Part shown: positions 2,193 to 18,285 of the stretch, piece by piece | How positions within the stretch are numbered: position 1 is the first letter of the stretch | Layout: each line of letters starts with the position of its first letter | Notes under the pieces: generated by a model | Told to the model about the DNA's origin: nothing | The model's database searches: none | The model's input: only the letters and a program-made list of their open reading frames with translations | Program-made: the position numbers and the translations under genes | From: an uncultured Bacteroidales bacterium | GTDB taxonomy: Bacteria; Bacteroidota; Bacteroidia; Bacteroidales; JAFGXI01 | Assembly (NCBI GenBank): GCA_947311115.1 | Contig: CAMZKE010000045.1 | Span: forward strand, 1,425 to 65,424 | Direction: 5' to 3' | DNA: 64,000 bases

Positions 2193-3428
2193 TTAAACTA
2201 CAAGATTAAATTTATCTTGCAAGTGTTCCATATCTCTTCCAACTTTTTTATCTAAAAGTTTAGCGTATATCTTTGTCATTTTTATTGATGAATGACCGAG
2301 CATTTTTGAAACTGTTTCTATTGGTACATCATTATTCAAAGTTACGGTTGTAGCAAAAGTATGGCGTGCAATATGGGTAGTTAATTTTTTATCTATACCA
2401 CAAATATCTGCAATCTCTTTTAAGTAAGCGTTCATCTTTTGATTTGACATTACCGGTAATAAAACATTTTTTATCTGACAATGAGGATGAAAATGATATT
2501 TCTCAATAATTGCCTCAGTAATTGGTAGCAAAGGTATATGACTACTACCATCGGTTTTAGTTCTGTTTATCATTACCCATTTATTGCCATCAGCTCCTGT
2601 TTTAATGTTTTCTTTGGTTAGCTTTTTTAAATCGGAATGTGCCAAACCGGTAAAACACGAAAACAAAAACATATCTTTTACTATTTCTAAGCGTTCTATT
2701 TTAAACTTTTTATTTATTAATGTATGTAATTCTTCTTCTGATAAAAATGGTCGTTCAGTTTTCTTAACTGTAATTTTAAAATTTACAAATGGGTCTTTTT
2801 TTAGCCAATCATTTGCCATTGCTATTTTTATTATTTTTTTAAAGATAGTTATATACTTCATTGTAGTATTATGAGAGCAATCTTTTTTTGTTTTTAGATA
2901 AATTTCAAATCCTTTAACAAATTTATTGTTCACATCAATAATATTTATGTCTTTTTGTTGATACTCTAATAACATATAATTAATTATATGCTTTAATGTA
3001 GATTTATATTTAGTAACCGTTGATTTTGAATAATCAATACCAATTAGTTTTTCCATTTCTAAATTATGTTCATTGAAAATATCAACCAAACTAACTATTT
3101 CTGTTTCATCTTCAATACCAAGATAAGCATCCTTTAACATTTGTGGTGTAATTTTTTGATTGGTTTCTCTCAAATATTTATAATGCTCATACATTGATGT
3201 TTTAATTGAAAACAAATAATCTGTTAAAGAACGTAATTTTCTTATACCTGTTTGCGGCATAGCTGTTTTTATATCCCATAATTCATAATCTATATCTCTA
3301 TGAACTGTCATATCAGATGTTTTACCACTTATTGTGATACGTAAATAAATTGGAGATTCTCCATTTGCATTTTTTCTGTGCTTCTTTACTATAAAGAGCT
3401 GTTTGAAAGTGTTTCTTTTTTTACTCAT
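2193..3428 (-). CDS. tyrosine-type site-specific integrase (Bacteroidota CTn/NBU-like, with N-terminal arm-binding domain)
   Basis: 411 aa. C-terminal catalytic block HIARHTFATTV...LGHSSIKMTKIYAKL (H-x-x-R ... Y). N-terminus FIVKKHRKNANGESPIYLRITISGK is typical of Bacteroidota integrases. Confidence 0.9.
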   Translation of the reverse strand: MSKKRNTFKQLFIVKKHRKNANGESPIYLRITISGKTSDMTVHRDIDYELWDIKTAMPQTGIRKLRSLTDYLFSIKTSMYEHYKYLRETNQKITPQMLKDAYLGIEDETEIVSLVDIFNEHNLEMEKLIGIDYSKSTVTKYKSTLKHIINYMLLEYQQKDINIIDVNNKFVKGFEIYLKTKKDCSHNTTMKYITIFKKIIKIAMANDWLKKDPFVNFKITVKKTERPFLSEEELHTLINKKFKIERLEIVKDMFLFSCFTGLAHSDLKKLTKENIKTGADGNKWVMINRTKTDGSSHIPLLPITEAIIEKYHFHPHCQIKNVLLPVMSNQKMNAYLKEIADICGIDKKLTTHIARHTFATTVTLNNDVPIETVSKMLGHSSIKMTKIYAKLLDKKVGRDMEHLQDKFNLVV

Positions 3429-4533: not shown

Positions 4534-6090
4534 ATGAGTAAAAACTCAAAAAATATAGACGGTAAAAATAATGTTAAGCGAAATTATACTTATAGCAATA
4601 AATTAGCATATAAAAATAAAGAAAATAAGCAAAAAGCACAGGCAATTTATGAATATTGCAAAGAGTGGGGAATAACACTACCAACAACTCGCAAAGAATA
4701 CAAAGAAAATAAAGACCTTGTACTTGCAGACAGAGAAACAGGCTATATTTTAGAGGAGTTTGATATTATCGCACGAGCTTATTACGATTTAAAACAGCCT
4801 ATCAATTCAGTATTAGCAGAGTTTCAAGATGATAACGGCAATAAACGTTATCAATTACTTATGTCGCAATATTCACGTAATAAGATTGATAGTATATGGA
4901 ATTATAAAAAAAGTAAAACGGCACGGCGAGTTTGGATAGAGTATTTAAAAGAACATACCGAACTAATAAAAGACTATGAGCCGAAACATCTAACTTTAAC
5001 CGTACCTCATAAAAACGGAACTTGGCGAGGTCAAGAATTTTTTGCAAAAGAACTTATCAAAGAATTTAACTTAATGCGTAAATCTGATAAGTTTAAACAG
5101 TATATTTATGCAGGTGCGTATAATATTGAAACAACAAAAACCGAAAACGGTAATCATACACACTTACACGCCTTAGTTTTTCAACATAAACAATATACAG
5201 TTAATAAAGTTAGAAAATTGATTGTTAAAGATTGGAACAAACGCACAGGTGCAACGCAGATAAGATATGAAAGTTTATATGTACATCAAAAAGATAACGC
5301 AGGGCGTTGGATAATTGAAACAAAAGAGGAATTATATCACAACGAGCTGGACGCTGACGGTAACGAAATAAAAGTAACACACAAAAACGCATATTCATTT
5401 AGAAAAAAGTTTTATTTAGATAACTCAAACGATTGGTACAGGAATTTAACAGACGTTGAGAAAATAGAGCAAATGAGTATTGGCATACTTGAAACATTAA
5501 AGTATAATTTTAAAGAGGAAGTATTTAAAAACCCTGACGGTACATATAACGTCTCATTTATGCACGAAACCCTTATAAATGGTAAAGGCTTACGTTTTTA
5601 TTCAAAGTTCGGTGCATTTTACGGCGAAAAAAAATTAAATTTAAAACAGGAGTTAGAACGTGATGAGCCTCTAACCGTTGAAAATGAGCAATACGATGAG
5701 AGCCAAGAGGACGACTACAAAACAGACACAAACAACACTATAATAAACACTTATAACCCTTTTACATACGAACACGCAAATTTAAACGAGTGCAAACTTA
5801 AATTAATACAAGTTGATAGATTAAAATTTTTGCGAAAGCCTGAAAAAAAGGAGGTTATTCTCACGCCGAACAAAGAGGATTTAATCGCTATTATAGACGG
5901 TTTAGATTTAAAAAAAATAGCTGAACTTATTGCCAAAGGACAGTTAAACGAAATTATAAAAGAGGAGTTTACAACGGACGATACGTTTACAACTGATGAT
6001 TTAGATGTAGGTAATATTTTGAATAAAGATGAATTTAAAAGTACAAACGATTTTATAAATGCGTTTGAGAATGATTTTTATAATGTTTAA
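4534..6090 (+). CDS. rep: rolling-circle replication initiator, HUH superfamily, Rep_1 (pC194/pUB110)-like motifs, with long acidic C-terminal extension
   Basis: Motif 1 KHLTLTVPHKNG. Motif 2 NHTHLHALVF (HUH). Motif 3 ETLKYNFKEE (catalytic Tyr in YxxK). The C-terminal ~140 aa are D/E/T-rich. Confidence 0.8.
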   Translation: MSKNSKNIDGKNNVKRNYTYSNKLAYKNKENKQKAQAIYEYCKEWGITLPTTRKEYKENKDLVLADRETGYILEEFDIIARAYYDLKQPINSVLAEFQDDNGNKRYQLLMSQYSRNKIDSIWNYKKSKTARRVWIEYLKEHTELIKDYEPKHLTLTVPHKNGTWRGQEFFAKELIKEFNLMRKSDKFKQYIYAGAYNIETTKTENGNHTHLHALVFQHKQYTVNKVRKLIVKDWNKRTGATQIRYESLYVHQKDNAGRWIIETKEELYHNELDADGNEIKVTHKNAYSFRKKFYLDNSNDWYRNLTDVEKIEQMSIGILETLKYNFKEEVFKNPDGTYNVSFMHETLINGKGLRFYSKFGAFYGEKKLNLKQELERDEPLTVENEQYDESQEDDYKTDTNNTIINTYNPFTYEHANLNECKLKLIQVDRLKFLRKPEKKEVILTPNKEDLIAIIDGLDLKKIAELIAKGQLNEIIKEEFTTDDTFTTDDLDVGNILNKDEFKSTNDFINAFENDFYNV

Positions 6091-6105
6091 TTAAAAAGTA
6101 GAAAA

Positions 6106-6438
6106 ATGAAAAGAATTGAAGTAATTGGAAACATCGGCAAAGATGCCGTAATTAAAGATTTTAACGACAAAAAAGCAATAAATTTTAATATTGCCGAAAA
6201 TGAGTATTACACAGATAAAGACGGCAATAAGATTGAAAAAACAAGCTGGTTTAATTGCACACTTTGGAAGTCTGAAAGTCAAAGTATTAAGATAGCGGAA
6301 TACTTAAAAAAAGGCGTTAAAGTGTTTATTGAGGGAACGCCAAAAGCTGATAGTTATATTACTGATAAAGGCGAGAGTGTTGCTTTTATTAATATTCAAG
6401 TTAAAAATATTGAGCTATTATCTAAGGTTGAGAACTAA
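6106..6438 (+). CDS. ssb: single-stranded DNA-binding protein (OB fold) lacking the usual acidic C-terminal tip
   Basis: MKRIEVIGNIGKDAVIK....AINFNIAENE......G...EKTSWFNCTLW...AEYLKKGVKVFIEGTP is the classic SSB OB-fold pattern. The protein ends ...ELLSKVEN, with no D-D-D-I-P-F type tail. Confidence 0.8.
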   Translation: MKRIEVIGNIGKDAVIKDFNDKKAINFNIAENEYYTDKDGNKIEKTSWFNCTLWKSESQSIKIAEYLKKGVKVFIEGTPKADSYITDKGESVAFINIQVKNIELLSKVEN

Positions 6439-7380: not shown

Positions 7381-7405
7381 ATTTTCATAGTTGTATTATT
7401 GCAAC

Positions 7406-7930
7406 GTGAAAAAGAAAATTATAATATATTCAATTATTGCCGTGCTGGTAGTACTTGCTTTTTTTGGTATCAAAAAAGCAAAAAAAATGCTTGCGTTAAA
7501 AAAAGCAAAAGTAAACGTATTAGATTTTCAGTTGTTAGATAATATCGGCGTTAAAACATTAAACACAGGATTTAATACAAAAGTAGATTTAAAATTACAA
7601 AACTATTCGCCGAACACTTACCAATTAGAGCAATTACAAGTTGATTTATATACTCCGTCTGGTCAATTATTAGCAGAACAACAACAACCAATTAAACCAA
7701 CGGAAATAAAACCAAACGCTAATACAACCGTTTCTATTAATCATTATATCAAAAGTGAAAAGTTTTTAGACTTGCTATCTGAAAATGATTATATAGATAA
7801 AAAAGAAACTGTTTTAGAAATAGCAATGAAATTATTATCAATGGATTTAAGCGGTGTTAATTTAACAATAAAAGGTTTTGCAATTATTGACGGTCTGGAA
7901 ATACCAATAAATGAAAATATATCTTTATAA
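7406..7930 (+). CDS. membrane-anchored beta-rich protein, possibly LEA_2/NDR1-like fold
   Basis: Track ORF 7391..7930 (TTG) trimmed to GTG 7406 (MKKKIIIYSIIAVLVVLAFFGI). VDLKLQNYSPNTYQLEQLQVDLYTPSGQLLAE resembles the LEA_2 pattern from memory. Weak. Confidence 0.45.
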   Translation: MKKKIIIYSIIAVLVVLAFFGIKKAKKMLALKKAKVNVLDFQLLDNIGVKTLNTGFNTKVDLKLQNYSPNTYQLEQLQVDLYTPSGQLLAEQQQPIKPTEIKPNANTTVSINHYIKSEKFLDLLSENDYIDKKETVLEIAMKLLSMDLSGVNLTIKGFAIIDGLEIPINENISL

Positions 7931-10011
7931 TGTTAGAAAATTTAAACATAGAGAAACCAAAATATATTGACGGTATAGTAAAGTATAATGCCACATTAGA
8001 GGACACCTTAAAACTTGTTTCTTTGATTAGTTCAAGAGATAGTTATCAAGTTAAAGGATTAGCCGAAAAGTTAAAAGCTGGTACAGTAGAGCAAACAGCA
8101 CATAATATTTGGAATTTCTTAAAATCAAACATACCATATAAAGAGGACACACGAGGAACGGAACAAGTAAGAACGCCAGCACGAGTTATTGAGGACGCAA
8201 AAAATGGCATTGGCGTTGATTGTGATTGTATGACTACCTTAGTGAGTGCAATTTTAAAGGAATTAAACATTAAACATTATTACAAGGTTGTAGCTTGGCA
8301 GGGCGATAATTACGCACATATATATCCTGTTGCTATTGACAATAACGGCAATGAATACGCTATTGACGGAATACCTGAAATAATACAATTTAATGTTGAG
8401 TTACCGTATTCATCTGAATTAAAATTTAATCAAAATTATTATAAAATGGATTTACAAGAATTAAACGGCACAGTTGCAGAACTTGAAGAAAAGCAAATTG
8501 CTGACGACTTTTTTAATACGGAGTTAAGCGGTGCAAATACTGATGAGGATAGCGAGGAAAGTTTAGATAAATACTATTCTGAAAATTATCACGCTTTAAT
8601 GGGTAATTATATTGTTGTTGATGATGAGCAAGACGCTGAATTTATTTTAGCTGGTGCTGATTTTTTTGAGGGCATATTTTACAAACAAACGCAATTATTA
8701 CTATCAAATTTGCGTAAAGAAAAAGAAAACCCTACTTTTTTAAGTAAATATCAAAACACAGAAAAAGAAATTGCCATTGCTGAAACTGTTTTGGTGAATT
8801 GGAAAGAAGATATTTTGCCAGCAATTTTAACAGAGGCGATACAGGATAGTGATAAATACAAAGATTTTTATATCGAACTTCGCAAAGGTATAACCGAATA
8901 TACAAGAAATAACGAGTTAAACGGTGTTGAGGACTTTGATATTTATTTAAAAGCTATCGGCGAGGACGAATTAAACGAATTGGAGTTAAATGGCTCATTA
9001 GACGGTTGGTTTAAAAAGGCTTGGAATAAAGTTAAAACAGGCTTAAAAAAAGCTGGTAAAAAGGTTAAAAACGGACTTTTAAAAGTTGGGCGTAAACTTC
9101 ATAGAGTCGCAATGTTCCCTGCACGAGCAACGGTATTTCCTATATTGCGAGCTGGTGGCGGTATATTATTTTTAGCACGATACGCAAACCCTGCTGACTT
9201 AAAAAAGTCTGCTAAGTTAAGAGAAAAGAAACGCCGTGCTGATTTTATAGTACACAAACTTGTTAGAGTTTTAGGGTATAATTTATCAAAGTTTGATAAC
9301 CTTGTTAAAGCTGGTATAAAAACAGCTTTTGGTGGCGTTGATAAAGCCTTTGCAAGATTAAAAAGAGGTAAACAGTTATACGGTACAGAACTTAACGGCG
9401 AATTAGGATTTTGGGCAACAGCCGCAAGTGCTGTAATAGGTTTAATTGGTAAACTTTGGAAGTTTATACAAAAGATTTTCAAAAAGAAACCAAAAGACCC
9501 AAAATTAACGGCTGGTGATTTTGCAAACGGTAGTACTGCAAACAATAACGCTGGTAATGATAACAACGATAATGCTGGTAATGATGATTACGCTGGTAAC
9601 GATTACAACGATAATGCTGGTAACAATTCAAAAAGTACAAGAATGAGTACATCAAATACAAAAGAAGAGGGCGGAAAAACTAAAAACGCATCAATAGTTG
9701 CTAAAGCTAAAGAGTTTACGAAAAAACATAAAACTACTTTAATAATAGTATCTATTGTTATTGTGTTGTTGATTGTAGGTTTTGTTTTTTGGAAAAAAAG
9801 CCACAGCAAGCCGAAAAAACGCAGAAGTGTAAACGGTAGGCAAAAAGCCTTAAACGGAACAAGAGTTGTAACGAGTACAAGCGTTAAAACTATTGACACA
9901 GGAAAGCGTTTAAAACAAATGCACCGTATTGCAAAAAGAATGAGAAAACAATATCCGAACGCTAAATACTCCACTTTGTTAAAAAAAGCAAGTAAAGAGC
10001 TTAAAAAGTAG
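7930..10011 (+). CDS. large transglutaminase-like cysteine peptidase domain protein with amphipathic Lys-rich region, N/D/G low-complexity repeats and C-terminal TM
   Basis: Cys-His-Asp core pattern GVDCDCMTTLVSAIL...NYAHIYPVAID...YAIDG. Residues ~350-520 are Lys-rich amphipathic helices. NDNAGND repeats occur at 9540-9625. TM segment TTLIIVSIVIVLLIVGFVFW. TAATG coupling with the previous ORF. Confidence 0.6.
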   Translation: MLENLNIEKPKYIDGIVKYNATLEDTLKLVSLISSRDSYQVKGLAEKLKAGTVEQTAHNIWNFLKSNIPYKEDTRGTEQVRTPARVIEDAKNGIGVDCDCMTTLVSAILKELNIKHYYKVVAWQGDNYAHIYPVAIDNNGNEYAIDGIPEIIQFNVELPYSSELKFNQNYYKMDLQELNGTVAELEEKQIADDFFNTELSGANTDEDSEESLDKYYSENYHALMGNYIVVDDEQDAEFILAGADFFEGIFYKQTQLLLSNLRKEKENPTFLSKYQNTEKEIAIAETVLVNWKEDILPAILTEAIQDSDKYKDFYIELRKGITEYTRNNELNGVEDFDIYLKAIGEDELNELELNGSLDGWFKKAWNKVKTGLKKAGKKVKNGLLKVGRKLHRVAMFPARATVFPILRAGGGILFLARYANPADLKKSAKLREKKRRADFIVHKLVRVLGYNLSKFDNLVKAGIKTAFGGVDKAFARLKRGKQLYGTELNGELGFWATAASAVIGLIGKLWKFIQKIFKKKPKDPKLTAGDFANGSTANNNAGNDNNDNAGNDDYAGNDYNDNAGNNSKSTRMSTSNTKEEGGKTKNASIVAKAKEFTKKHKTTLIIVSIVIVLLIVGFVFWKKSHSKPKKRRSVNGRQKALNGTRVVTSTSVKTIDTGKRLKQMHRIAKRMRKQYPNAKYSTLLKKASKELKK

Positions 10012-10072: not shown

Positions 10073-10813
10073 ATGGACGAGAATTTTAACAATTCAGAGC
10101 TAACAGAAGAAGAAATTGTTTTAGCTGGAATGGGCGGAAATGATGAAGATTTTACCGCAGAGGAAAACGAAAAAGATTTAGTTTTAGACGGAGATTTAGG
10201 ACGTTGGGGACGTAGAAGATACTCGCCAAAACGTTACAGACGTGTAAGAGTTGCTTCTATTGGTAAAAATACCGCCGCAAGTTTATTCAGAAAACAAGCC
10301 TTAGAACGTGTTTCTAAAATGTCGCCTGATGTTCAAAAGAAACTTATCAAAGGACAGGCTCAAATTTCTGATATGGTATATTATGCTTGTGGCGAACTTG
10401 CCGGACGTTCAGTTGATTTAGTTGATGAGAGTGTAAACCGTACACTTGGCGTTACTAACCTTGACGGTGGTAAGATTGACAAAGACAAAGAATTTGTTTT
10501 ATCGGCTGTTAAGTTTGCTTGGGACGATAACTCTTTAAAAGGTGCGTATGCAGACCCTATCCCTGCCGAAGTTATTAACGGTGAGTTTGAATTGCAGTTA
10601 AACGGTAAAAAAGTTATTGACAATATGCCAATGGCAATATTTACTGACGGTGTGAATGGTTACAATGTAAACAAGCCTTATGCTTATTACGTTTTAAACA
10701 ACCCTAAGCATATCAAACCGCAGACTACTATTGAGTTGGAAGTAAAAACAGCCTATAATGTAAATGGTTTCTTAAAAGTTTACTTAATCGGTACATCGGT
10801 TAAACCTTTTTAA
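10073..10813 (+). CDS. candidate major capsid protein: acidic leader, Arg-rich arm, beta-rich C-domain
   Basis: RWGRRRYSPKRYRRVRV arm, then a strand-rich C-half ending TIELEVKTAYNVNGFLKVYLIGTSVKPF. A strong terminator hairpin follows. The functional call is inference only. Confidence 0.35.
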   Translation: MDENFNNSELTEEEIVLAGMGGNDEDFTAEENEKDLVLDGDLGRWGRRRYSPKRYRRVRVASIGKNTAASLFRKQALERVSKMSPDVQKKLIKGQAQISDMVYYACGELAGRSVDLVDESVNRTLGVTNLDGGKIDKDKEFVLSAVKFAWDDNSLKGAYADPIPAEVINGEFELQLNGKKVIDNMPMAIFTDGVNGYNVNKPYAYYVLNNPKHIKPQTTIELEVKTAYNVNGFLKVYLIGTSVKPF

Positions 10814-10837
10814 CACACACAATTTTTATTAATAATT

Positions 10838-10880
10838 AAAGCGTACAGGTAATAGTTGTACGCTTTTAATTAATTTTTTT
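10838..10880 (+). terminator. rho-independent terminator after the candidate capsid gene
   Basis: 10-bp stem AAAGCGTACA / TGTACGCTTT (10838-10847 with 10857-10866), followed by a T-rich run. Confidence 0.6.
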
Positions 10881-10898
10881 AACTTAAAATTTTAACAA

Positions 10899-11123
10899 AT
10901 GGCAATTTCAAAAAGGGCACAAATGGCGTTAAATGCTGTTAATTCATTTGACGAAGTGGACGCAAAAGATTTTAGTAATGCAATAACTTTTGGTAACAAA
11001 TATTTTAAAGTACGCCAATTTATAGCCACAGGCTTAAAAAAAGCTGAAAAAACAGAAAGTACAGAAAGTACAGAAAGTACAGAAAGTACAGAAAGTACAG
11101 AGGGTACAAGTGATAAATTGTAA
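10899..11123 (+). CDS. hypothetical protein with (TES)n tandem repeat
   Basis: 74-aa ORF; C-terminus is KTESTESTESTESTESTEGTSDKL. Confidence 0.45.
   Translation: MAISKRAQMALNAVNSFDEVDAKDFSNAITFGNKYFKVRQFIATGLKKAEKTESTESTESTESTESTEGTSDKL
11052..11105 (+). repeat. 9-bp tandem repeat ACAGAAAGT x5 plus one variant, in frame inside the 74-aa ORF
   Basis: Read directly. Confidence 0.9.
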
Positions 11124-11134
11124 AACAATAAGTA

Positions 11135-11473
11135 ATGCAAAAAATTCAAGCTATAAAAGTTGAGATACCAAACGGACAAGATACAATTACTGTTACTGAT
11201 GATTTAACAGTTGGTTATTCAAAGTTTACAGGTGTTGCCGTTGTCAATAGTCAAGCTGGTAACGATGTTTTAAAATCTGTAATGTTTGACGGCAAAGAAC
11301 TTTTGCCGAAAAATACAGAGGTTGCACTTATACAATCTACAACAAATGTTATTCCTGATGAGAGGTTTTTTTCTGTAAACGAAAAAAATCAAAACTCATC
11401 AATAGAATTAACAATAAAAGCAAGTAATACAGCAGGGCGTGCATATAACGTTTATTTAAGATTAGAAAAATAA
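11135..11473 (+). CDS. small beta-rich protein (candidate capsid or vertex component)
   Basis: 112 aa. The ending SSIELTIKASNTAGRAYNVYLRLEK parallels the C-terminus of the 246-aa protein. Confidence 0.35.
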   Translation: MQKIQAIKVEIPNGQDTITVTDDLTVGYSKFTGVAVVNSQAGNDVLKSVMFDGKELLPKNTEVALIQSTTNVIPDERFFSVNEKNQNSSIELTIKASNTAGRAYNVYLRLEK

Positions 11474-11475
11474 CG

Positions 11476-11802
11476 ATGTTACACAAAGTTAATGCAAGTA
11501 TAACAGGGCGTTTAATACCATTTAGAACGGAGTACAAACCTAAACGTAAAGAATTGTTAAAAGGTGTGTATTTCCCTAATTATAATAATTTAGTTAAGAG
11601 AAAAGCAACGTTAAGTATATTTATCAATAATGAAATAGTTATTGATGAAATGCACCCTGTTGATATTCATACTTCATTAAATAAACGTTTACGTGTTATT
11701 GATAGAATAATCAATGAGCCTGTTACTGTTATTTTTAAAGCTGATAGTGAAAAAACATTTTTTGTATCCTGTTATTTAGAAACACAAGTAATTGATGAGT
11801 AA
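11476..11802 (+). CDS. small beta-rich protein (candidate structural)
   Basis: 108 aa. The ending VTVIFKADSEKTFFVSCYLETQ repeats the same pattern more loosely. Confidence 0.3.
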   Translation: MLHKVNASITGRLIPFRTEYKPKRKELLKGVYFPNYNNLVKRKATLSIFINNEIVIDEMHPVDIHTSLNKRLRVIDRIINEPVTVIFKADSEKTFFVSCYLETQVIDE

Positions 11803-12136
11803 ATTAACCGAACATATTATTTTAAACGACCTAAAAAAACGAGGTATAACAAATTATACAATTAAAGAATATAATTTGATACGTCCAGACTTTATTAAGG
11901 TTGGTAAACGAGAGTTGATTTATTTACATTTATTTGAGGCAAGAACAAAAGAAAAAGGTTTTGATGTATTGTTATATTCTGATGAGGATAAAATATTGTA
12001 CACGCAAGAAAATACAGTAAAAACATTAGAAGTATATACAAGTAATATTCTAACAGTTTTTGAGAGTGATATTCGCTCGATAATAAAGGCTAAACCTGAA
12101 ACTTATTTTATTCAATTTTACAAAGTAACCTATTAA
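11792..12136 (+). CDS. hypothetical protein
   Basis: 114-aa ORF overlapping the previous ORF by 11 nt. No motif. Confidence 0.4.
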   Translation: MMSKLTEHIILNDLKKRGITNYTIKEYNLIRPDFIKVGKRELIYLHLFEARTKEKGFDVLLYSDEDKILYTQENTVKTLEVYTSNILTVFESDIRSIIKAKPETYFIQFYKVTY

Positions 12137-12147
12137 CACAAAAAGCA

Positions 12148-13104
12148 ATGAGTAAGAAAAGAATAATACAAGCCGAAAGCGATGAACAAATAAAAAATTT
12201 TGTTTCAACTTATAAATATTGGGCAATATTAGACGGTAGCGATGAGCTGGCAAATTCTAATATTGAGAATGTAGATTTTGAAAAAGAATTAATAAAAGCT
12301 ATTGATGTAGGTATTAAGAGAGGGCGACAATATTTAGTTATTCGTGTTGGAAGTAATGAGTATAATAGTCGTACCAATGATGAAATGGTAATAAGTTTAT
12401 CTAATTATACAAATCCAATTACAGAACAATACGCACCAAACACACAACCAAACGCACCAATTATTTTAAGTGGTCTTAACAAGCCGTTAAATAATACAGG
12501 CATAACAGCAACGGAAATGCAAACTTATTTAAACGGTGCATTAGAAAGGCAACAAAAGGAATTTGAGGCAATGAATAAAAGTACCCTTGCAGGCTTGCAG
12601 GCTGAAATGAAAAAACAGCAAGCTGAACAGGAAATTGCACTTTTAAAGCAAATGCACGAGCAACAAATGAATTTTGAACGCCAATTATTACAGCGTGAAC
12701 GTGAGGAGTTAGAACGTAAACAACGAGAGCTGGAAGTGGAACGAGAGGAGTTTGAATTTGAAAAACAAGAAAACAAAGAGGGTATAAAAGGATTTGTTTC
12801 AACACTTGCAGGCTTTGGACGTGATTTAGTGGACGATGTTTTGCCAAAAAAAGATAAAGAAGATACTGAGCTAAAAGGAACTGAAAATATTGACACTTCA
12901 AATGTTGATAATACAGAAACTTTACAATTTGAGGACACGGAAACAAACGATAACAACGAGGCAGATATAATTTTAGACGGCATAGAAAAAATGAGCAAAG
13001 AGGATTTGCAAGTTATACAGGAACTACTTGCCGAAAAATTAAAAGATAACAACACAGAAAAAAACAAAGAATTTACTAACGATAAAACGCAAGAAAATGA
13101 ATAA
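12148..13104 (+). CDS. coiled-coil, E/Q/K-rich protein with acidic tail (scaffold-like)
   Basis: Central QQKEFEAMNK...LQREREELERKQRELEVEREEFEFEKQE heptad-like stretch. D/E/T/N-rich C-terminus. Confidence 0.5.
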   Translation: MSKKRIIQAESDEQIKNFVSTYKYWAILDGSDELANSNIENVDFEKELIKAIDVGIKRGRQYLVIRVGSNEYNSRTNDEMVISLSNYTNPITEQYAPNTQPNAPIILSGLNKPLNNTGITATEMQTYLNGALERQQKEFEAMNKSTLAGLQAEMKKQQAEQEIALLKQMHEQQMNFERQLLQREREELERKQRELEVEREEFEFEKQENKEGIKGFVSTLAGFGRDLVDDVLPKKDKEDTELKGTENIDTSNVDNTETLQFEDTETNDNNEADIILDGIEKMSKEDLQVIQELLAEKLKDNNTEKNKEFTNDKTQENE

Positions 13105-13396
13105 GTATAATATTGAAGTAAGAGTAAACGATAACGGTAAAATAAAGAGCTTACATATAGATATGCAAGCGGAAAGTTTAACACACTTAGCAAGCGAAAT
13201 ACAAGGCTTGCAACAATTAAACAAAACTCTTTCGCACGATGATTTTATGCAAGCAAAAGAATTGATTATACAAAAACCGCAGTTAGTAACTACTATTAAA
13301 GAGGTTATTAACGAAACCGAAGATTTAAGCGAAACTCAAATGCTGATGAAAGCCCCGAGTTTAATTCGTAGATTTATTAAAGTATTAAAAGATTAG
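13097..13396 (+). CDS. hypothetical protein
   Basis: 99-aa ORF overlapping the previous ORF by 8 nt (ATGAATAA). Confidence 0.4.
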   Translation: MNKYNIEVRVNDNGKIKSLHIDMQAESLTHLASEIQGLQQLNKTLSHDDFMQAKELIIQKPQLVTTIKEVINETEDLSETQMLMKAPSLIRRFIKVLKD

Positions 13397-13400
13397 AAAA

Positions 13401-13835
13401 ATGAACCCTAAATTATTAGCCTTAGCCAGCAATTTAGATGTAAATAAGATAATAAAATACGTTATTATCCTTATTGTTGTTTTAATTGCAATTCGTTACA
13501 TTAAAAAGTATGTTAAAAAACATAAAAACGAGCAAGTAGTAGCCAATTTAGAGCAAGATATAAAGGTAAACAAATTATCTTATCCTTTATCTTATTATCC
13601 ATTATGGGCAGATGAGCTTTTTAAGGCAATGGACGGTATGGGAACTAATGAAGATGTTGTTTTTAAAATCTTTGGAAAACTTAAAACAAAAGATGATGTA
13701 TTGCAGTTAATTACAGCTTTTGGAGTGAAAAAAGAGGAAACATTAACGCAATGGCTTGTTGATGATTTAAGTGATGATGATAGAAACGCACTTAATCGTT
13801 TAATGAGTGATAAAAATATAAATTATCAGTTTTAA
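13401..13835 (+). CDS. membrane-anchored protein with a single annexin-type repeat
   Basis: TM segment IIKYVIILIVVLIAIRYI. Then WADELFKAMDGMGTNEDVVFKIFGKLKTKDDVLQLITAF matches the annexin repeat consensus A..L.KAM.G.GT.E..LI.I...R.......I as I remember it. Confidence 0.55.
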   Translation: MNPKLLALASNLDVNKIIKYVIILIVVLIAIRYIKKYVKKHKNEQVVANLEQDIKVNKLSYPLSYYPLWADELFKAMDGMGTNEDVVFKIFGKLKTKDDVLQLITAFGVKKEETLTQWLVDDLSDDDRNALNRLMSDKNINYQF

Positions 13836-13921: not shown

Positions 13922-14410
13922 ATGAAAATAACAAAGAAAACATATACATTAATAGCAATATTATTAGTTGTTATAGTTTTATTTGTTATCATAACTCGTA
14001 AGAAAATGGCAGAGATAAAAGAATGTAGTTTTTTTGACACAAAAGAATTTGATAGCCCAGATGTTCAAGGAAGTGGCAAGAATATGCAACACACAACATT
14101 ATTAATGCTTTGTGAGGCTCGTAAAATTGCAAATGTACCGTTTAAAATAAATAGCGGTTTTAGAACTATTGAACACAATGCAAAAGTTGGCGGTGTTGTT
14201 AATTCAGCTCACACGAGAGGCTATGCAATAGATATAAGCACGCCAAACGGACACAATCAAAAATTAATTGTTAAGGCTTTAAGACAAGCAGGATTTAAAC
14301 GCTTTGGAATTTATACAAATTTTATTCACGCCGATAACGACCCTATAAAAAAACAGTTTGCATATTGGGGAACAGCAAAGGAACGTTTTAACCCTTTTCA
14401 TTTAGCATAA
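13922..14410 (+). CDS. peptidase M15A-type cell-wall hydrolase with N-terminal signal anchor (endolysin candidate)
   Basis: TM segment TYTLIAILLVVIVLFVIIT. Then INSGFRTIEHNAKVGGVVNSAHTRGYAIDIS...FIHADND (the H..D...H zinc-site pattern of Peptidase_M15_3). Confidence 0.75.
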   Translation: MKITKKTYTLIAILLVVIVLFVIITRKKMAEIKECSFFDTKEFDSPDVQGSGKNMQHTTLLMLCEARKIANVPFKINSGFRTIEHNAKVGGVVNSAHTRGYAIDISTPNGHNQKLIVKALRQAGFKRFGIYTNFIHADNDPIKKQFAYWGTAKERFNPFHLA

Positions 14411-14616
14411 TGATAATGAATAATGTTAAAACATATATAGCGGTGGTATTGTACTTTATTAACGAAAATATGAGTATTGATAATATATTGAGTTTATCTA
14501 TTGCAGTATTTACAGTTATATACTTATTGCTGGGTATTGTTTTAAAATTTAGAAAAGTTATTGAAAATGACTGCAAAACAAAGAAAAATATTAATAATAA
14601 TTTTAGTGATAATTAG
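14410..14616 (+). CDS. small two-TM membrane protein (holin or membrane-protein candidate)
   Basis: TAATG coupling to the M15 gene. Two hydrophobic segments: TYIAVVLYFI and LSLSIAVFTVIYLLLGIVL. Confidence 0.4.
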   Translation: MIMNNVKTYIAVVLYFINENMSIDNILSLSIAVFTVIYLLLGIVLKFRKVIENDCKTKKNINNNFSDN

Positions 14617-14671
14617 TGTTGTTGCTTCGTCATCGGCAACCATACTACAACTAAGTGAAGTAAAAAAATGA
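14567..14671 (+). CDS. possible 34-aa single-pass membrane peptide
   Basis: Manual translation MTAKQRKILIIILVIISVVASSSATILQLSEVKK. It overlaps the 3' end of the previous ORF in another frame, so only one of the two may be real. Confidence 0.25.
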   Translation: MTAKQRKILIIILVIISVVASSSATILQLSEVKK

Positions 14672-14781
14672 AAGGTTTAACAAGTCTTATAATACTGATA
14701 ATTATAGTGGCAATAGCATATTCAGTATATAAGAAGTATAAAACTTTTAATAAAATAAAGAACTTTTTAAAATTTTGGTAA
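14668..14781 (+). CDS. possible 37-aa single-pass membrane peptide
   Basis: Manual translation MKGLTSLIILIIIVAIAYSVYKKYKTFNKIKNFLKFW. ATGA overlap with the preceding small ORF. Confidence 0.3.
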   Translation: MKGLTSLIILIIIVAIAYSVYKKYKTFNKIKNFLKFW

Positions 14782-14782
14782 A

Positions 14783-15439
14783 ATGAGCAGATTTATAAAA
14801 ATTGCACTTGTTATGTTGGCTTTTGCTTTTGGTTTTTTCCTGTATAAAAAAGCAAAGGACAAAGAGAATGATAAAAAGAAAAACAATGAGTTAAACGGTG
14901 CATTAGACGGTTTTTTTGTTACCGAGAGTATAAAGAACTTAGATGAGCTTAAAAAACAGTACCGAAAATTAAGTATGATTTACCACCCGGACAAAGGGGG
15001 AAGTGTAGAGCAAATGCAGGCTTTAAATGATGAGTACGATAAGCTAAGGGCAAAACTTAAAGCTGGTGCAAACTTATCGGACGAGGAAAGCGATTTAGAG
15101 GACGAGCTGGACGAGGTTTACAAAGAAGTTATAAGCACTTTAATTTTAATACCAAACATTGATATAGAACTTATCGGCTCTTGGATTTGGATTAGTGGGA
15201 ACACGTACCCTATTAAAGATATGCTAAAAGATTTAAACTTCAAATTCGCACGTAACAAAAAAATGTGGTATTGGCACGGCGATACTCCATATAAAAAGAA
15301 ATCAAAAGTAAAATATTCTATTGATGAGATTAGAGAGATGTATAAAAACCAAAAGATACAAAAGAACTACGGCAATAGAATATTAAACGGCTTATACAAA
15401 GATATGAGCTATTTACAAGGACTTTTAAACTATCGTTAA
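14783..15439 (+). CDS. membrane-anchored J-domain (DnaJ-like) protein
   Basis: N-terminal TM FIKIALVMLAFAFGFFLY. J-domain LDELKKQYRKLSMIYHPDKGGSVEQMQALNDEYDKL with the HPD motif. Trp-rich C-terminal domain ELIGSWIWISGNTYPIKDMLKDLNFKFARNKKMWYWHG. Confidence 0.7.
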   Translation: MSRFIKIALVMLAFAFGFFLYKKAKDKENDKKKNNELNGALDGFFVTESIKNLDELKKQYRKLSMIYHPDKGGSVEQMQALNDEYDKLRAKLKAGANLSDEESDLEDELDEVYKEVISTLILIPNIDIELIGSWIWISGNTYPIKDMLKDLNFKFARNKKMWYWHGDTPYKKKSKVKYSIDEIREMYKNQKIQKNYGNRILNGLYKDMSYLQGLLNYR

Positions 15440-15440
15440 T

Positions 15441-15881
15441 ATGGGAAATGTTATAAGTAGTATATTAAACGGTGCAACAAAAGGCATATTAAACGGTGCA
15501 AATAATATTATTGATAATATTGTTACTAATAAAGAGGAAAAAACACAGCTAAAAAACGAACTTACAAAAATATTAACCGAAAATGCTAACATTCAAGAAC
15601 AGGAACTTACAAAGAGGTTACAATATGATATGTCTTCTGATAGTTGGCTGGCAAAGAACATAAGACCGTTATCATTAGTATTCACAACATTATTTATATT
15701 TGGTATTACTCTAACAGACGGTAATATTGGAAGTTTTACCATTAACACGGTTTACATTGATTTGTTTAAATCGCTGTTAATGGTGCAATACTCCTTTTAT
15801 TTTGGCTCTCGTGCATTAACTAAATCACTTGCTTATTTAGATAAGTTTGATATAAGACTTTTTGGAAAGAAAAAAAGATAA
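15441..15881 (+). CDS. holin-like membrane protein (resembles the 3TM gene-transfer-agent holin family)
   Basis: The N-terminal pattern GANNIIDNIVTNKEEKTQLKNELTKIL, followed by hydrophobic segments, resembles GTA_holin_3TM proteins from memory. Last + strand gene of the block. Confidence 0.4.
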   Translation: MGNVISSILNGATKGILNGANNIIDNIVTNKEEKTQLKNELTKILTENANIQEQELTKRLQYDMSSDSWLAKNIRPLSLVFTTLFIFGITLTDGNIGSFTINTVYIDLFKSLLMVQYSFYFGSRALTKSLAYLDKFDIRLFGKKKR

Positions 15882-15911: not shown

Positions 15912-15941
15912 AAACGTCCTCTATTTTGAGGGCGTTTTTTT
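15912..15941. terminator. hairpin plus T-run between the convergent late block and the PIN gene
   Basis: AAACGTCCTC / GAGGGCGTTT (one mismatch), followed by TTTTTTT. Confidence 0.45.
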
Positions 15942-16368
15942 ACGTTTTTAAATATTCTAACGGTGTAAATATTTGTAAATCAGAAGTGTTAAAATCTTTT
16001 TTATTCCTGGTAATAATTATGTTTATATTATTATTATAAGCACAAGCATTTATTAAACTATCCTCAAAGTCTTTAAAGTTTGAATTTAAAGCATATATAA
16101 CATCTATATCAGATAAATGAATAAGATTAACATAATTAAGTAGCTTTAACACTCCAAACATTGCCGTATCATTATTTGTATAGCGTGAGATTATATAATA
16201 AAGAGTATCTAAACTTAAAGAGGCATAAAAAAGTTTTGCGTTATTGTTTATTAATTTTTTTATAAATTCTTTAACATTATAATCTGTATTTCTATTAGTC
16301 AATATATCAACACATACATTAACATCTAATAGTAAATTTTTAGGCGTGTTTGTTTTTCCTATACTCAT
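15940..16368 (-). CDS. PIN-domain toxin (VapC-like)
   Basis: Track ORF 15940..16419 trimmed to internal Met (MSIGKTNTPKNLLLDVNVCVDIL...). LLDVNV contains the first PIN acidic residue. Sits downstream of, and overlaps, a Phd-like ORF. Confidence 0.6.
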   Translation of the reverse strand: MSIGKTNTPKNLLLDVNVCVDILTNRNTDYNVKEFIKKLINNNAKLFYASLSLDTLYYIISRYTNNDTAMFGVLKLLNYVNLIHLSDIDVIYALNSNFKDFEDSLINACAYNNNINIIITRNKKDFNTSDLQIFTPLEYLKT

Positions 16369-16636
16369 TGTATTCTTTTTTTGTTTTATTATAATCAATA
16401 TCAGCATCAATAATTCCAAGTAATTCGGATATATCTGTATTTAAACTTTCGTTTTTCTCTTTATTATTTAACCTATTCCATTCATCAAAACTAATCATAA
16501 CAATATTAGTTTTTTTGTTGCGATGAATGATAACAACTTCTTTCTTGTCGGATACCTTATCAAGTATAAATTTAGGTTTTCTTGTTAGTTCTGTTATGTT
16601 TATTACTTCCATAATCAAATTTTTTAAATTAAACAT
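16340..16636 (-). CDS. Phd/YefM-type antitoxin
   Basis: 98 aa. VINITELTRKPKFILDKVSDKKEVVIIHRNKKTNIVMISFDEWNRL fits the Phd/YefM N-terminal pattern. Confidence 0.6.
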   Translation of the reverse strand: MFNLKNLIMEVINITELTRKPKFILDKVSDKKEVVIIHRNKKTNIVMISFDEWNRLNNKEKNESLNTDISELLGIIDADIDYNKTKKEYNEYRKNKHA

Positions 16637-16688: not shown

Positions 16689-16735
16689 AGACACGCTTAA
16701 TTATTCGTTTAATTAAACAAATTATGTTATTTAAC

Positions 16736-16812
16736 ACTAAAAAACGACTAAAAAACGACTAAAAAACGACTAAAAAACGACTAAAAAAGCACTAAAAAAC
16801 ATCTAAAAAAGC
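16736..16812. repeat. seven tandem 11-bp repeats ACTAAAAAACG (phased A6 tracts)
   Basis: Read directly: four perfect copies, then three variants (ACTAAAAAAGC, ACTAAAAAACA, TCTAAAAAAGC). Confidence 0.9.
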
Positions 16813-16964
16813 ACTAATTTTAGTACCTGAATAGTGCGAAAACACTATCTAAGTTAGTTAATTTAGTAATAAATCAGTAATTTTTTACTTTGGCACGGTT
16901 TTTAACTTGCTTTCATCTAAAAGAGTTTCCTCGTACGATAGTACGAAATAGTAAATAAAAACAT

Positions 16965-17921
16965 TTAGAATAAATCAAACTTTTTAATTTCATTTATTTT
17001 TATTTCATCTACTACTTTTGCATAAATTTGAGTTGTACTTATTTTTTTATGTCCAAGTAATTTACTTATTACCTCTATTGGAATACCTAAACTAAGCCCA
17101 ACCGTTGCAAATGTATGACGTGCTACGTGAAAGGTTAATGTTTTACTTATATCGGTAAGTTTAGCAATTTTCTTTAAATTTTCGTTTGTTTTTTGATTGC
17201 TGACAACACGGAACAAATAACCGTTGTATGATGTAGGTAATAAACTTAATGCTTTATTGTTCAAAGGTACACGAACAAAATCTTTTGTTTTATGCTGTTT
17301 TATTTCAATTATATTATTTACTATATGTTTTGATTGCAAGTTCTTTATATCGGCAAATCTTAACCCTGTATAACACGAAAATAAGAAGTAAGAACAAACG
17401 TTTTTTATTGCCTCGTTGTTTGTTTCGGCTCTTAGTTTTTCAATTTTATTAATTTCTTTTTTTGTTAAAAAATCTCTTTTGCCCTCAATTCTGCCAATTT
17501 TGATACTATTAAAAGGATTGTGTTCTTTTGATATTATACCCTCGTTTATTGCTTTGTTAAGTGTTGATTTCAAAAAAGCATAAGTTTTTAAAATTGTATT
17601 CCTGTTATTACCCAGCTCTACGGTCATATATTTTTCGTATTCATAAATAAACTGCCTGTTAATTTCGTTTAGTTTTAAGTTTTTTCTAAATTTTTTTAGC
17701 TTGCTTTTTTGTGTTCTGTAAGTTTTTTTTGTTTCCTTGCTGTACTGATGAGAGTATTTATTCATAAAAAAATCTACAAAACTGAAAAAATCTAAATCTT
17801 TTTTTTGTGTGTGTTCAATTTTTTTTTGAGCAGAAAAATAACCGTTTAAAATTTCTACATTGCTTGAATTTGTTGAATAATACATATTTTTGTTTTTTGT
17901 GTTAGAAAACATAAAACGCAA
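16965..17921 (-). CDS. int: tyrosine recombinase/integrase of the phage-like element
   Basis: HVARHTFATVGL...LGHKKISTTQIYAKV catalytic block. Adjacent to attR and tRNA-Asp. The true start may be the Met at 17885. Confidence 0.9.
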   Translation of the reverse strand: MRFMFSNTKNKNMYYSTNSSNVEILNGYFSAQKKIEHTQKKDLDFFSFVDFFMNKYSHQYSKETKKTYRTQKSKLKKFRKNLKLNEINRQFIYEYEKYMTVELGNNRNTILKTYAFLKSTLNKAINEGIISKEHNPFNSIKIGRIEGKRDFLTKKEINKIEKLRAETNNEAIKNVCSYFLFSCYTGLRFADIKNLQSKHIVNNIIEIKQHKTKDFVRVPLNNKALSLLPTSYNGYLFRVVSNQKTNENLKKIAKLTDISKTLTFHVARHTFATVGLSLGIPIEVISKLLGHKKISTTQIYAKVVDEIKINEIKKFDLF

Positions 17922-18210: not shown

Positions 18211-18223
18211 GCGGTCTGGACGA
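18211..18223. repeat. attR: 13-bp direct repeat GCGGTCTGGACGA inside tRNA-Asp
   Basis: Identical to 3665-3677. Confidence 0.75.
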
Positions 18224-18285
18224 GACTCGAACTCGCGACCCCATGCGTGACAGGCATGTATTCTAACCAACTGAACTACCAAACC
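18212..18285 (-). tRNA. tRNA-Asp (anticodon GTC)
   Basis: Manual fold of the minus strand: GGTTTGG TA GTTC AGTTGGTTA GAAT A CATGC CTGTCAC GCATG GGGTC GCGAG TTCGAGT CTCGT CCAGACC G. The 7-bp acceptor has one G:U pair. GTC is central in the anticodon loop. No encoded CCA. Confidence 0.85.

Follow-up and report, generated by a model that had tools for sequence, protein, structure and literature searches.

We analysed a 64,000-nucleotide stretch of DNA from an uncultured Bacteroidales bacterium (contig CAMZKE010000045.1; hereafter the window, with a G+C content of about 30%). The interval 10073-11802 of the window was found to contain four co-oriented open reading frames (ORFs), encoding the proteins p246, p74, p112 and p108. 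We favour, with modest confidence, the view that a tail-less temperate phage, probably with a membrane, has integrated into the genome of a Flavobacteriia-type host and that the interval holds the core of its virion module. Three of the genes (p246, p112 and p108) probably encode proteins of the shell and vertices of a tail-less virus that has not been described before, in a marine Flavobacteria-type genome; this is a prediction from fold and gene context, and no particles have been seen. The element is probably a tail-less jelly-roll phage of a new family.

The first-pass annotation of the window had proposed p246, p112 and p108 as a candidate capsid module. All three ORFs and the peptides quoted from them were exactly present. 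The fourth ORF, p74, was overlooked there and is a conserved member of the module. The features of the interval were as follows.

10073-10813, + strand: p246, candidate major capsid protein, 246 aa (ORF, family alignment, AlphaFold2 (AF2) model, Foldseek)
10202-10252, + strand: codons of the Arg-rich arm of p246, RWGRRRYSPKRYRRVRV, residues 44-60 (translation; basic stretch in the aligned homologs)
10838-10866, + strand: hairpin terminator or attenuator 3' of p246, 11 pairs, T-rich tail
10899-11123, + strand: p74, small helical protein of the "variable slot" of the module, 74 aa (hhalign to the slot family, Prob 82%)
11135-11473, + strand: p112 (slot A), candidate penton or minor capsid protein, 112 aa (AF2 small beta-sandwich)
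11476-11802, + strand: p108 (slot B), fast-evolving tandem paralog of p112, 108 aa (hhalign to the slot-B family)

The p246 family and its basic arm

The proteins p246, p112 and p108, and the module proteins p114 and p318, had zero matches in Pfam, PHROG and NCBIfam, and 98 diverse members of the p246 family had zero matches in PHROG. A word-index search returned 29 homologs of p246, all of them unnamed, and a profile search of 1.84 billion proteins gave a family of 560 representative clusters (50% identity, E <= 1e-3). The comparison of p246 profiles with the PDB by sequence gave noise only, including a basic leucine zipper (bZIP) basic region matched by the basic helix of p246 (E 0.017).

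Members of the family were found to contain a leader, a variable segment with a basic stretch, a basic helix (ASRFRKQ.LERV) and a domain of ~155 residues. The leader was invariant in the family alignment as ELTxEEI(I/V)L(A/S)G. In p246, the conserved leader (ELTEEEIVLAG) occupied residues 1-19 and was followed by an acidic insert at residues 20-43, the Arg-rich stretch RWGRRRYSPKRYRRVRV at residues 44-60, the conserved basic helix at residues ~70-92 and a beta-sandwich at residues ~93-246. The acidic leader (residues 1-43) and the Arg-rich stretch reported by the first-pass annotation were both found as described. A basic stretch of 4-14 Lys/Arg residues, always preceded by Gly, was present at the equivalent position in 26/26 aligned homologs. 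The long acidic insert was found only in the clade of the window's p246, where the basic stretch was correspondingly longer, and the net charge was ~0 in the homologs with this insert. The N-terminal segment that precedes the folded domain of p246 was predicted to be disordered and contains the basic stretch, and this basic character was conserved among the homologs.

Predicted fold of p246

The AF2 model of p246, built with the family alignment, had a predicted local distance difference test (pLDDT) score of <50 at residues 1-11 and 19-69 and of 80-90 at residues 70-246. The strand-rich C-terminal half noticed earlier was recovered as a confident beta-sandwich at residues 70-246, and the N-terminal residues 1-69 were disordered. 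Foldseek against the PDB gave as the best match the SPV1 capsid chain 6oj0_A (E 1.1e-4, prob 1.00, template modelling (TM) score 0.39/0.51, of which 0.51 is on the target), with a sequence identity of 12%. Further PDB matches were chains of the PBCV-1 capsid, KHP30 capsid and SH1 particle entries and gemini- and luteovirus coat proteins. A similar mixture, including capsid proteins of CRESS-DNA viruses, was obtained from BFVD. The model supports the reading of p246 as a jelly-roll-like beta-sandwich with a disordered basic arm at its N-terminus.

SPV1 (Portogloboviridae) is the nearest solved structure to p246 by fold, with a jelly-roll of ~175-180 residues. The SPV1 shell is made of single jelly-roll proteins, in VP4 hexamers and VP10 pentamers, over an inner membrane (PMC8459092). 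SPV1 differs from the present element in being an archaeal, non-lytic virus, with a 20 kb double-stranded DNA (dsDNA) genome that is wrapped by a separate nucleoprotein.

A conserved hairpin follows the best-conserved gene

The strong terminator reported in the first pass was confirmed as an 11-pair hairpin at 10838-10866, followed by a T-rich tail. We surveyed hairpins of <= -13 kcal/mol within 110 nt 3' of the stop codon in 27 loci. An equivalent hairpin was found 3' of the p246 orthologs in 26/27 loci, against 13% of random 110-nt windows; the frequency 3' of the other module genes was 8-39%. The hairpins following p246 had a median of -17.5 kcal/mol, and their sequences differed among loci. 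A conserved terminator or attenuator 3' of one gene of a late operon would, we infer, be expected for the most abundantly needed product.

The mean pairwise identity, over 231 locus pairs, was highest in p246 (0.67) among the module proteins; the others ranged between 0.28 and 0.57, with 0.48 in p112, 0.28 in p108, 0.33 in p114, 0.48 in p318 and 0.56 in p99. The highest conservation and the conserved 3' hairpin, two independent comparative observations, favour p246 as the main shell protein. The fast-evolving p108 would suit a position that is exposed or interacts with the host.

The paralogous proteins p112 and p108

The ends of p112 and p108 had been read in the first pass as an echo of the C-terminus of p246. 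In the window sequences this echo was at chance level: the BLASTP comparison of p246 with p112 gave an E value of 0.46 with 7/21 identical residues, and those of p112 with p108 and of p246 with p108 gave nothing. The family profiles of slot A and slot B, compared without the window sequences, matched over 111 columns (hhalign Prob 95.3%, E 2.3e-8), and a deeper alignment of p112 against the slot-B family gave Prob 96.8% (E 2.2e-10); over the comparisons, Prob ranged from 95.3 to 96.9%. The p108 of the window alone had no score against the slot-B model. When pooled with its close relatives of the loci L036-L038, it matched the slot-B family (hhalign 96.7%, E 3.9e-10). The profile similarity extends over the full length, beyond the last strand, and therefore we regard p112 and p108 as diverged tandem paralogs.

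Deep profiles of p246 and p112 gave Prob 33% (E 4.5e-4, 83 columns), and Prob 16% in the reverse comparison (E up to 1.6e-3). This signal stood above the background for unrelated module families (E >= 0.03) and is borderline; in our comparison, the aligned segments coincided with predicted strands in both models. There was no signal between p246 and the profile of the slot-B family. The earlier suggestion of possibly diverged paralogs thus holds for p112 and p108 (hhalign 95-97%); for p246 with the small proteins, the signal was borderline or absent.

A profile search returned 72 homologs of p112, all unnamed, and in every related locus the slot after p112 was occupied by a protein of 101-122 aa. 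The AF2 model of p112 was a small beta-sandwich of eight or nine strands (mean pLDDT 89.5). Among its fold matches were YPM, nucleoplasmin cores, a chain of the HHIV-2 particle entry (TMq 0.53), the SPV1 chain 6oj0_Z and PM2 P2. p112 resembles the penton proteins PRD1 P31 and FLiP P12 as a single beta-sandwich in the size range of ~110-125 residues whose gene lies beside that of the candidate shell protein. No sequence match and no significant fold match was found between p112 and pentons of the P31/P12 type. The FLiP penton protein P12 is a small canonical beta-sandwich (PMC9719478).

The element and its conserved gene order

The module began with tm179, a ~95-aa protein, a DUF553 protein (700-1070 aa), p246, the p74 slot, p112 and p108, followed by p114, p318, p99, a ~136-aa transmembrane protein, a cell-wall hydrolase, small membrane proteins and a holin. 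This gene order was kept in ~27 genome loci, mostly of Aquimarina together with other Flavobacteriales (tblastn, ORF maps), and also in the loci L036-L038 and L053-L058; further metagenome contigs carry the module. In the window, the module was joined to a putative HUH-type Rep, a single-stranded DNA-binding protein (SSB), an excisionase-like helix-turn-helix protein, two tyrosine integrases, a toxin-antitoxin-like pair and tRNA-Asp. The size of the element was ~13-16 kb. Its features outside the interval were as follows.

2193-3428, - strand: left-hand tyrosine integrase of the element, 411 aa (family scan)
4534-6438, + strand: replication genes, 518-aa putative Rep and SSB (HUH and ExxKYxxK motifs; SSB 3.7e-18)
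7391-7930, + strand: tm179, membrane-anchored, first conserved gene of the module (synteny)
7930-10011, + strand: tg693, large transglutaminase-like (DUF553) protein with hydrophobic segments and a Lys-rich tail (Pfam DUF553 1.1e-8; synteny)
11792-13835, + strand: p114, p318 (acidic coiled-coil), p99 and p144 (transmembrane segment and weak annexin-like repeat), conserved module genes (ORFs, synteny)
13922-15881, + strand: lysis region with endolysin, 68-aa transmembrane protein, J-domain membrane protein and holin (Pfam, PHROG)
13922-14410, + strand: M15 peptidase endolysin with an N-terminal transmembrane segment (Pfam Peptidase_M15_3 2.1e-15; PHROG endolysin)
14783-15439, + strand: J-domain membrane protein, p218 (phrog_15863, E 1.7e-37)
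15441-15881, + strand: holin (GTA_holin_3TM at the Pfam cut-off; PHROG holin 1.4e-17)
16965-17921, - strand: second tyrosine integrase, 318 aa, adjoining tRNA-Asp at 18211-18285 (L036 has an integrase at the equivalent position)

The 518-aa putative Rep contained the motifs HTHLHALV (HUH) and ETLKYNFK (ExxKYxxK), as read from the translation, and its match (1.2e-4) to Rep_1, the Pfam family of pC194/pUB110-type rolling-circle Reps, scored 22.1 bits, below the cut-off of 33.2. The longer homologs of tg693, in L053-L058, contained LPD1 and DUF553. The element combined integrase, replication and lysis genes, as temperate prophages do, and the module recurred in >30 loci with differing flanks. The Pfam, PHROG and NCBIfam scans of the element gave neither a terminase, portal, HK97-type capsid or tail family nor an ATPase family, and no Walker A motif was present in any ORF of the element. 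The packaging ATPase of the FtsK/HerA type, which is defining for viruses of the PRD1, PM2 and sphaerolipovirus types, was thus not found here. The gene layout is that of a small temperate, tail-less phage.

Comparison with known viruses

By biology, the nearest systems are FLiP and PhiCjT23 (Finnlakeviridae and relatives), small, tail-less, lipid-containing single-stranded DNA (ssDNA) phages of Flavobacterium that have the host phylum in common with the element (PMC9719478). PhiCjT23 is also temperate, and related sequences occur in Flavobacterium genomes. The major capsid protein (MCP) of these phages is a double jelly-roll (PMC9719478), whereas no double jelly-roll protein was detected in the element. 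Neither FLiP nor PhiCjT23 stood among the 50 best PDB matches listed for the p246 fold, and there was no tblastn match to them either. The PhiCjT23 genome, of 7,642 nt (PMC11945456), is smaller than the ~13-16 kb element.

Many ssDNA viruses need an N-terminal basic arm to encapsidate their genome (PMC11945456). The coat proteins of Circoviridae and other CRESS-DNA viruses, of Geminiviridae and of RNA viruses of the luteo- and nodavirus types resemble p246 in having a disordered basic arm followed by a jelly-roll, and several of them were among its fold matches. They differ in coming from viruses of eukaryotes, whose shells are T=1 or T=3 and whose genomes measure a few kb, and their TM scores were 0.2-0.3. 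p246 also differs from them in the short arm of most of its relatives and in the conserved acidic leader before the arm.

The "Charybdis" elements were considered and set aside as unrelated, being archaeal and ~4.6 kb long. No description of the present element family was found in the literature.

Weighing of the explanations

A number of observations weigh against a tail-less phage with a p246 shell. The basic arm was short (4-7 Lys/Arg) in most p246 homologs. Viral collections gave no support: tblastn of p246 against 50,697 deposited phage genomes had no match, and the p246 profile found no relative in 2.9 million IMG/VR viral contigs. The deposited phage genomes had no tblastn match to tg693 and Rep. 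No terminal overlap, as in a circular contig, was present in any fetched locus, and the window contained no second copy of the tRNA-Asp 3' end and no convincing long direct repeat that could serve as an attachment (att) site. The replication genes differed among loci, which leaves the strandedness of the genome uncertain. The element, of ~13-16 kb, has three to five times the size of the small ssDNA and ssRNA viruses (T=1 or T=3) from whose capsid proteins the first-pass annotation drew its analogy, and a single-jelly-roll shell for such a genome would need a large triangulation (T) number or a second shell protein.

The fold matches of p246 were modest (TM 0.3-0.5) and included the cellular sandwiches furin P domain, BcsB, PorU and CBM35. 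The arm, the jelly-roll-like fold and a viral capsid (SPV1) as the best PDB match speak for the capsid-protein assignment made in the first pass, and the modest scores and the cellular matches speak against it. The Foldseek matches of p112 all had E >= 1e-3, the first of them being to lambda gpJ, Ena fibres and GOLD domains. Of the proposal that the two small proteins are penton or minor jelly-roll proteins, the confident small beta-sandwich of p112 is retained, but the matches are too generic to bear out a penton role.

The shell might instead be made of p112-p108 heterodimers of upright single jelly-rolls, in the style of VP7-VP4 of the sphaerolipoviruses, with p246 as a penton, vertex or genome-anchoring protein whose arm points inward. 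Sphaerolipoviruses, with which P23-77 is counted, are dsDNA viruses with a packaging ATPase, and their shell proteins are of ~185/232 aa (SH1 VP7/VP4) and ~173/291 aa (P23-77 VP16/VP17). SH1, HHIV-2 and HCIV-1 have separate single-barrel capsid proteins, a single-barrel penton and an internal membrane. The adjacency and paralogy of p112 and p108 agree with such a shell, as do the matches of p112 to the HHIV-2 particle chain and PM2 P2 and those of p246 to SH1 and PBCV-1 chains. In HCIV-1 and HHIV-2, two single-barrel MCPs pair as a heterodimer to give the capsomer unit, and the N-terminal extension of the penton protein VP9 contacts the membrane (PMC6414509). However, slot B was the least conserved position (0.28), which is unusual for a major shell subunit, whereas p246 was the most conserved, and the conserved hairpin isolates p246 and not the p112/p108 pair. 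Domains of 100-120 aa are also small for a major capsid protein and smaller than the sphaerolipovirus shell proteins. The module proteins have no sequence similarity to those of sphaerolipoviruses, and their packaging ATPase was not found here. We consider a heterodimer shell unlikely.

We judge it less likely again that p246 lies inside the particle as a core protein that condenses the genome or associates with the membrane, with the true MCP elsewhere in the module (for example p114, the N-terminal part of p318, or tm179) and with p112 and p108 as spike or decoration proteins. The basic arm and the bZIP-like basic helix do suggest nucleic-acid binding, p112 matches the fibre- and adhesin-type sandwiches of lambda gpJ and Ena, and several module proteins have no fold assignment. 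But the folded, 175-residue jelly-roll of p246 best matches a capsid shell protein, its conservation and terminator fit an abundant shell protein, and in the profile comparisons the remaining module families showed no relation to the jelly-roll families. The least likely of the explanations is that the module is cargo of a non-viral integrative element, made up for example of secreted or surface beta-sandwiches along with a polyvalent effector and a cassette for lysis or release, in which the likeness to jelly-rolls is incidental. The lack of matches in viral contig and phage collections would agree with this, as would the lack of any circular form and the many cellular proteins among the beta-sandwich matches; the LPD1 "polyvalent" domains also occur in conjugative elements, according to the family description. 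Yet a holin and an endolysin at the end of the module, with integrase, Rep and SSB, are the organisation of a temperate phage, and relaxase or secretion genes turned up in none of the scans. p246 has no signal peptide, and its disordered basic arm is typical of coat proteins. Genomes with up to three module copies and the swapping of flanking genes also argue against cargo.

Proposed organisation of the virion

In the tail-less phage that we favour, the capsomers would be made of the C-terminal jelly-roll of p246 (~175 residues), and the shell would enclose a lipid-lined core; several module proteins are membrane-anchored. The disordered N-terminus of p246 would lie inward, where the basic stretch and the basic helix could touch the genome or an acidic lipid surface. 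The invariant leader may be a docking motif or propeptide, and in the clade of the window the extra acidic insert may balance the enlarged Arg stretch. The conserved hairpin would keep the level of the p246 transcript above that of the downstream genes. Minor positions would be taken by p112 and p108. The five-fold (penton) unit would most likely be the conserved p112, and the fast-evolving p108 would be its diverged partner, exposed or vertex-associated. The large DUF553/LPD1 protein may travel in the virion as an entry or "polyvalent" protein.

The genome would be replicated by the HUH Rep and SSB as a rolling circle. It may be enclosed without a motor, because no packaging ATPase was found, and with motorless enclosure it could be ssDNA, as in FLiP. 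Exit would be through the holin and the endolysin. Tentatively, we put forward a family of marine Flavobacteriia phages that has so far gone unrecognised, temperate and tail-less and containing a membrane, with a single-jelly-roll, basic-arm shell, two tiny paralogous jelly-rolls and an ATPase-free, rolling-circle ssDNA genome; this fuller picture is possible but somewhat doubtful.

Other features of the element

The tail of p74 was found to be a low-complexity (TES)5, encoded in-frame by a 9-bp tandem repeat at 11037-11108 of the window; in the L038 homolog, (TTKA)n replaces (TES)n. tg693 likewise contained an in-frame tandem repeat (9545-9623), which gives a (NAGND)-like low-complexity tail. 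p144 (13401-13835) has a transmembrane segment at its N-terminus and, unusually for a membrane protein of a phage, weakly matched annexin repeats (Pfam Annexin E 9e-4, under the cut-off). The J-domain protein p218, which adjoins the holin, had tblastn homologs in Enterococcus and Fusobacterium phages.

A near-identical in-frame motif, in both DNA and peptide, was found as ELNG(S/A)LDG(W/F)F in tg693 and p218, LNGALE in p318 and ILNGATKGILNGA in the holin. Its sites were 8983-9012, 14888-14917, 12529-12545 and 15465-15481, and also 8514-8533 and 8907-8926. In addition, "EEADIVLxG" of the tg homologs resembles the "EEIVLAG" of the p246 leader. The tripeptide L(N/A)G was ~3-fold enriched in the tg family, and it was conserved at two positions there and at one in the p246 leader. 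Judged from sequence, the recurrent L(N/A)G-type motif could be a common processing or docking signal. Nothing links the tripeptide to cleavage, and its reading as a protease site is kept as an idea.

A tyrosine integrase lies on each side of the element, the right one directly beside tRNA-Asp. Two elements, nested or in tandem, are one possible reading, and an att site elsewhere than in the tRNA is another. Between the holin and this integrase, the minus strand contained overlapping small ORFs of 159 and 98 aa (15940-16636); at their place L036, the closest relative, contained a ParE/YoeB toxin and a PhdYeFM antitoxin. An 11-bp unit, ACTAAAAAACG, was repeated in tandem seven to nine times at 16725-16823, between the antitoxin-like gene and the second integrase. 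These repeats could be iterons, or binding sites of the integrase or a repressor.

Three separate whole-module copies (L019, L023 and L027; OZ238992.1) were found on one 2.1-Mb chromosome of a Flavobacteriales metagenome-assembled genome. The p246 protein P0017, of the loci L053-L058, was indexed in 113 blocks of the assembly collection. Its module had two downstream flanks, one with an integrase followed by host housekeeping genes and the other with a 1638-aa Type ISP restriction-modification enzyme and DUF488. The latter form was found on contigs of ~15.7 kb, with an identical start in L054, L056 and L057 and a coverage of up to 157x, and may be defence cargo or an episomal form. The recurrence of these contigs with an identical start was considered as a sign of circularity and rejected, since it looks like a shared assembly breakpoint.

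Significance

Cultured tail-less phages of Bacteroidota are few, and FLiP and PhiCjT23 both use double jelly-roll capsids. The module described here is a candidate single-jelly-roll virus group outside the current virus-detection resources, spread over many marine Flavobacteriales genomes, mostly of Aquimarina, and sometimes present in several copies. Carriers include Aquimarina mytili KCTC 23302, A. longa SW024, A. sediminis w01 and A. hainanensis KCTC 42423; several of the carrier strains are held in culture collections, so the prediction is directly testable. If it is true, the module would represent a new virus family and would provide profile models for its detection in marine metagenomes. 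Such phages would be the bacterial single-barrel counterpart of FLiP and PhiCjT23 and would bear on the relation between single- and double-barrel capsids. The duplication of p112 and p108 and the faint similarity of p246 to p112 would then capture the duplication and divergence of jelly-rolls within one virion module.

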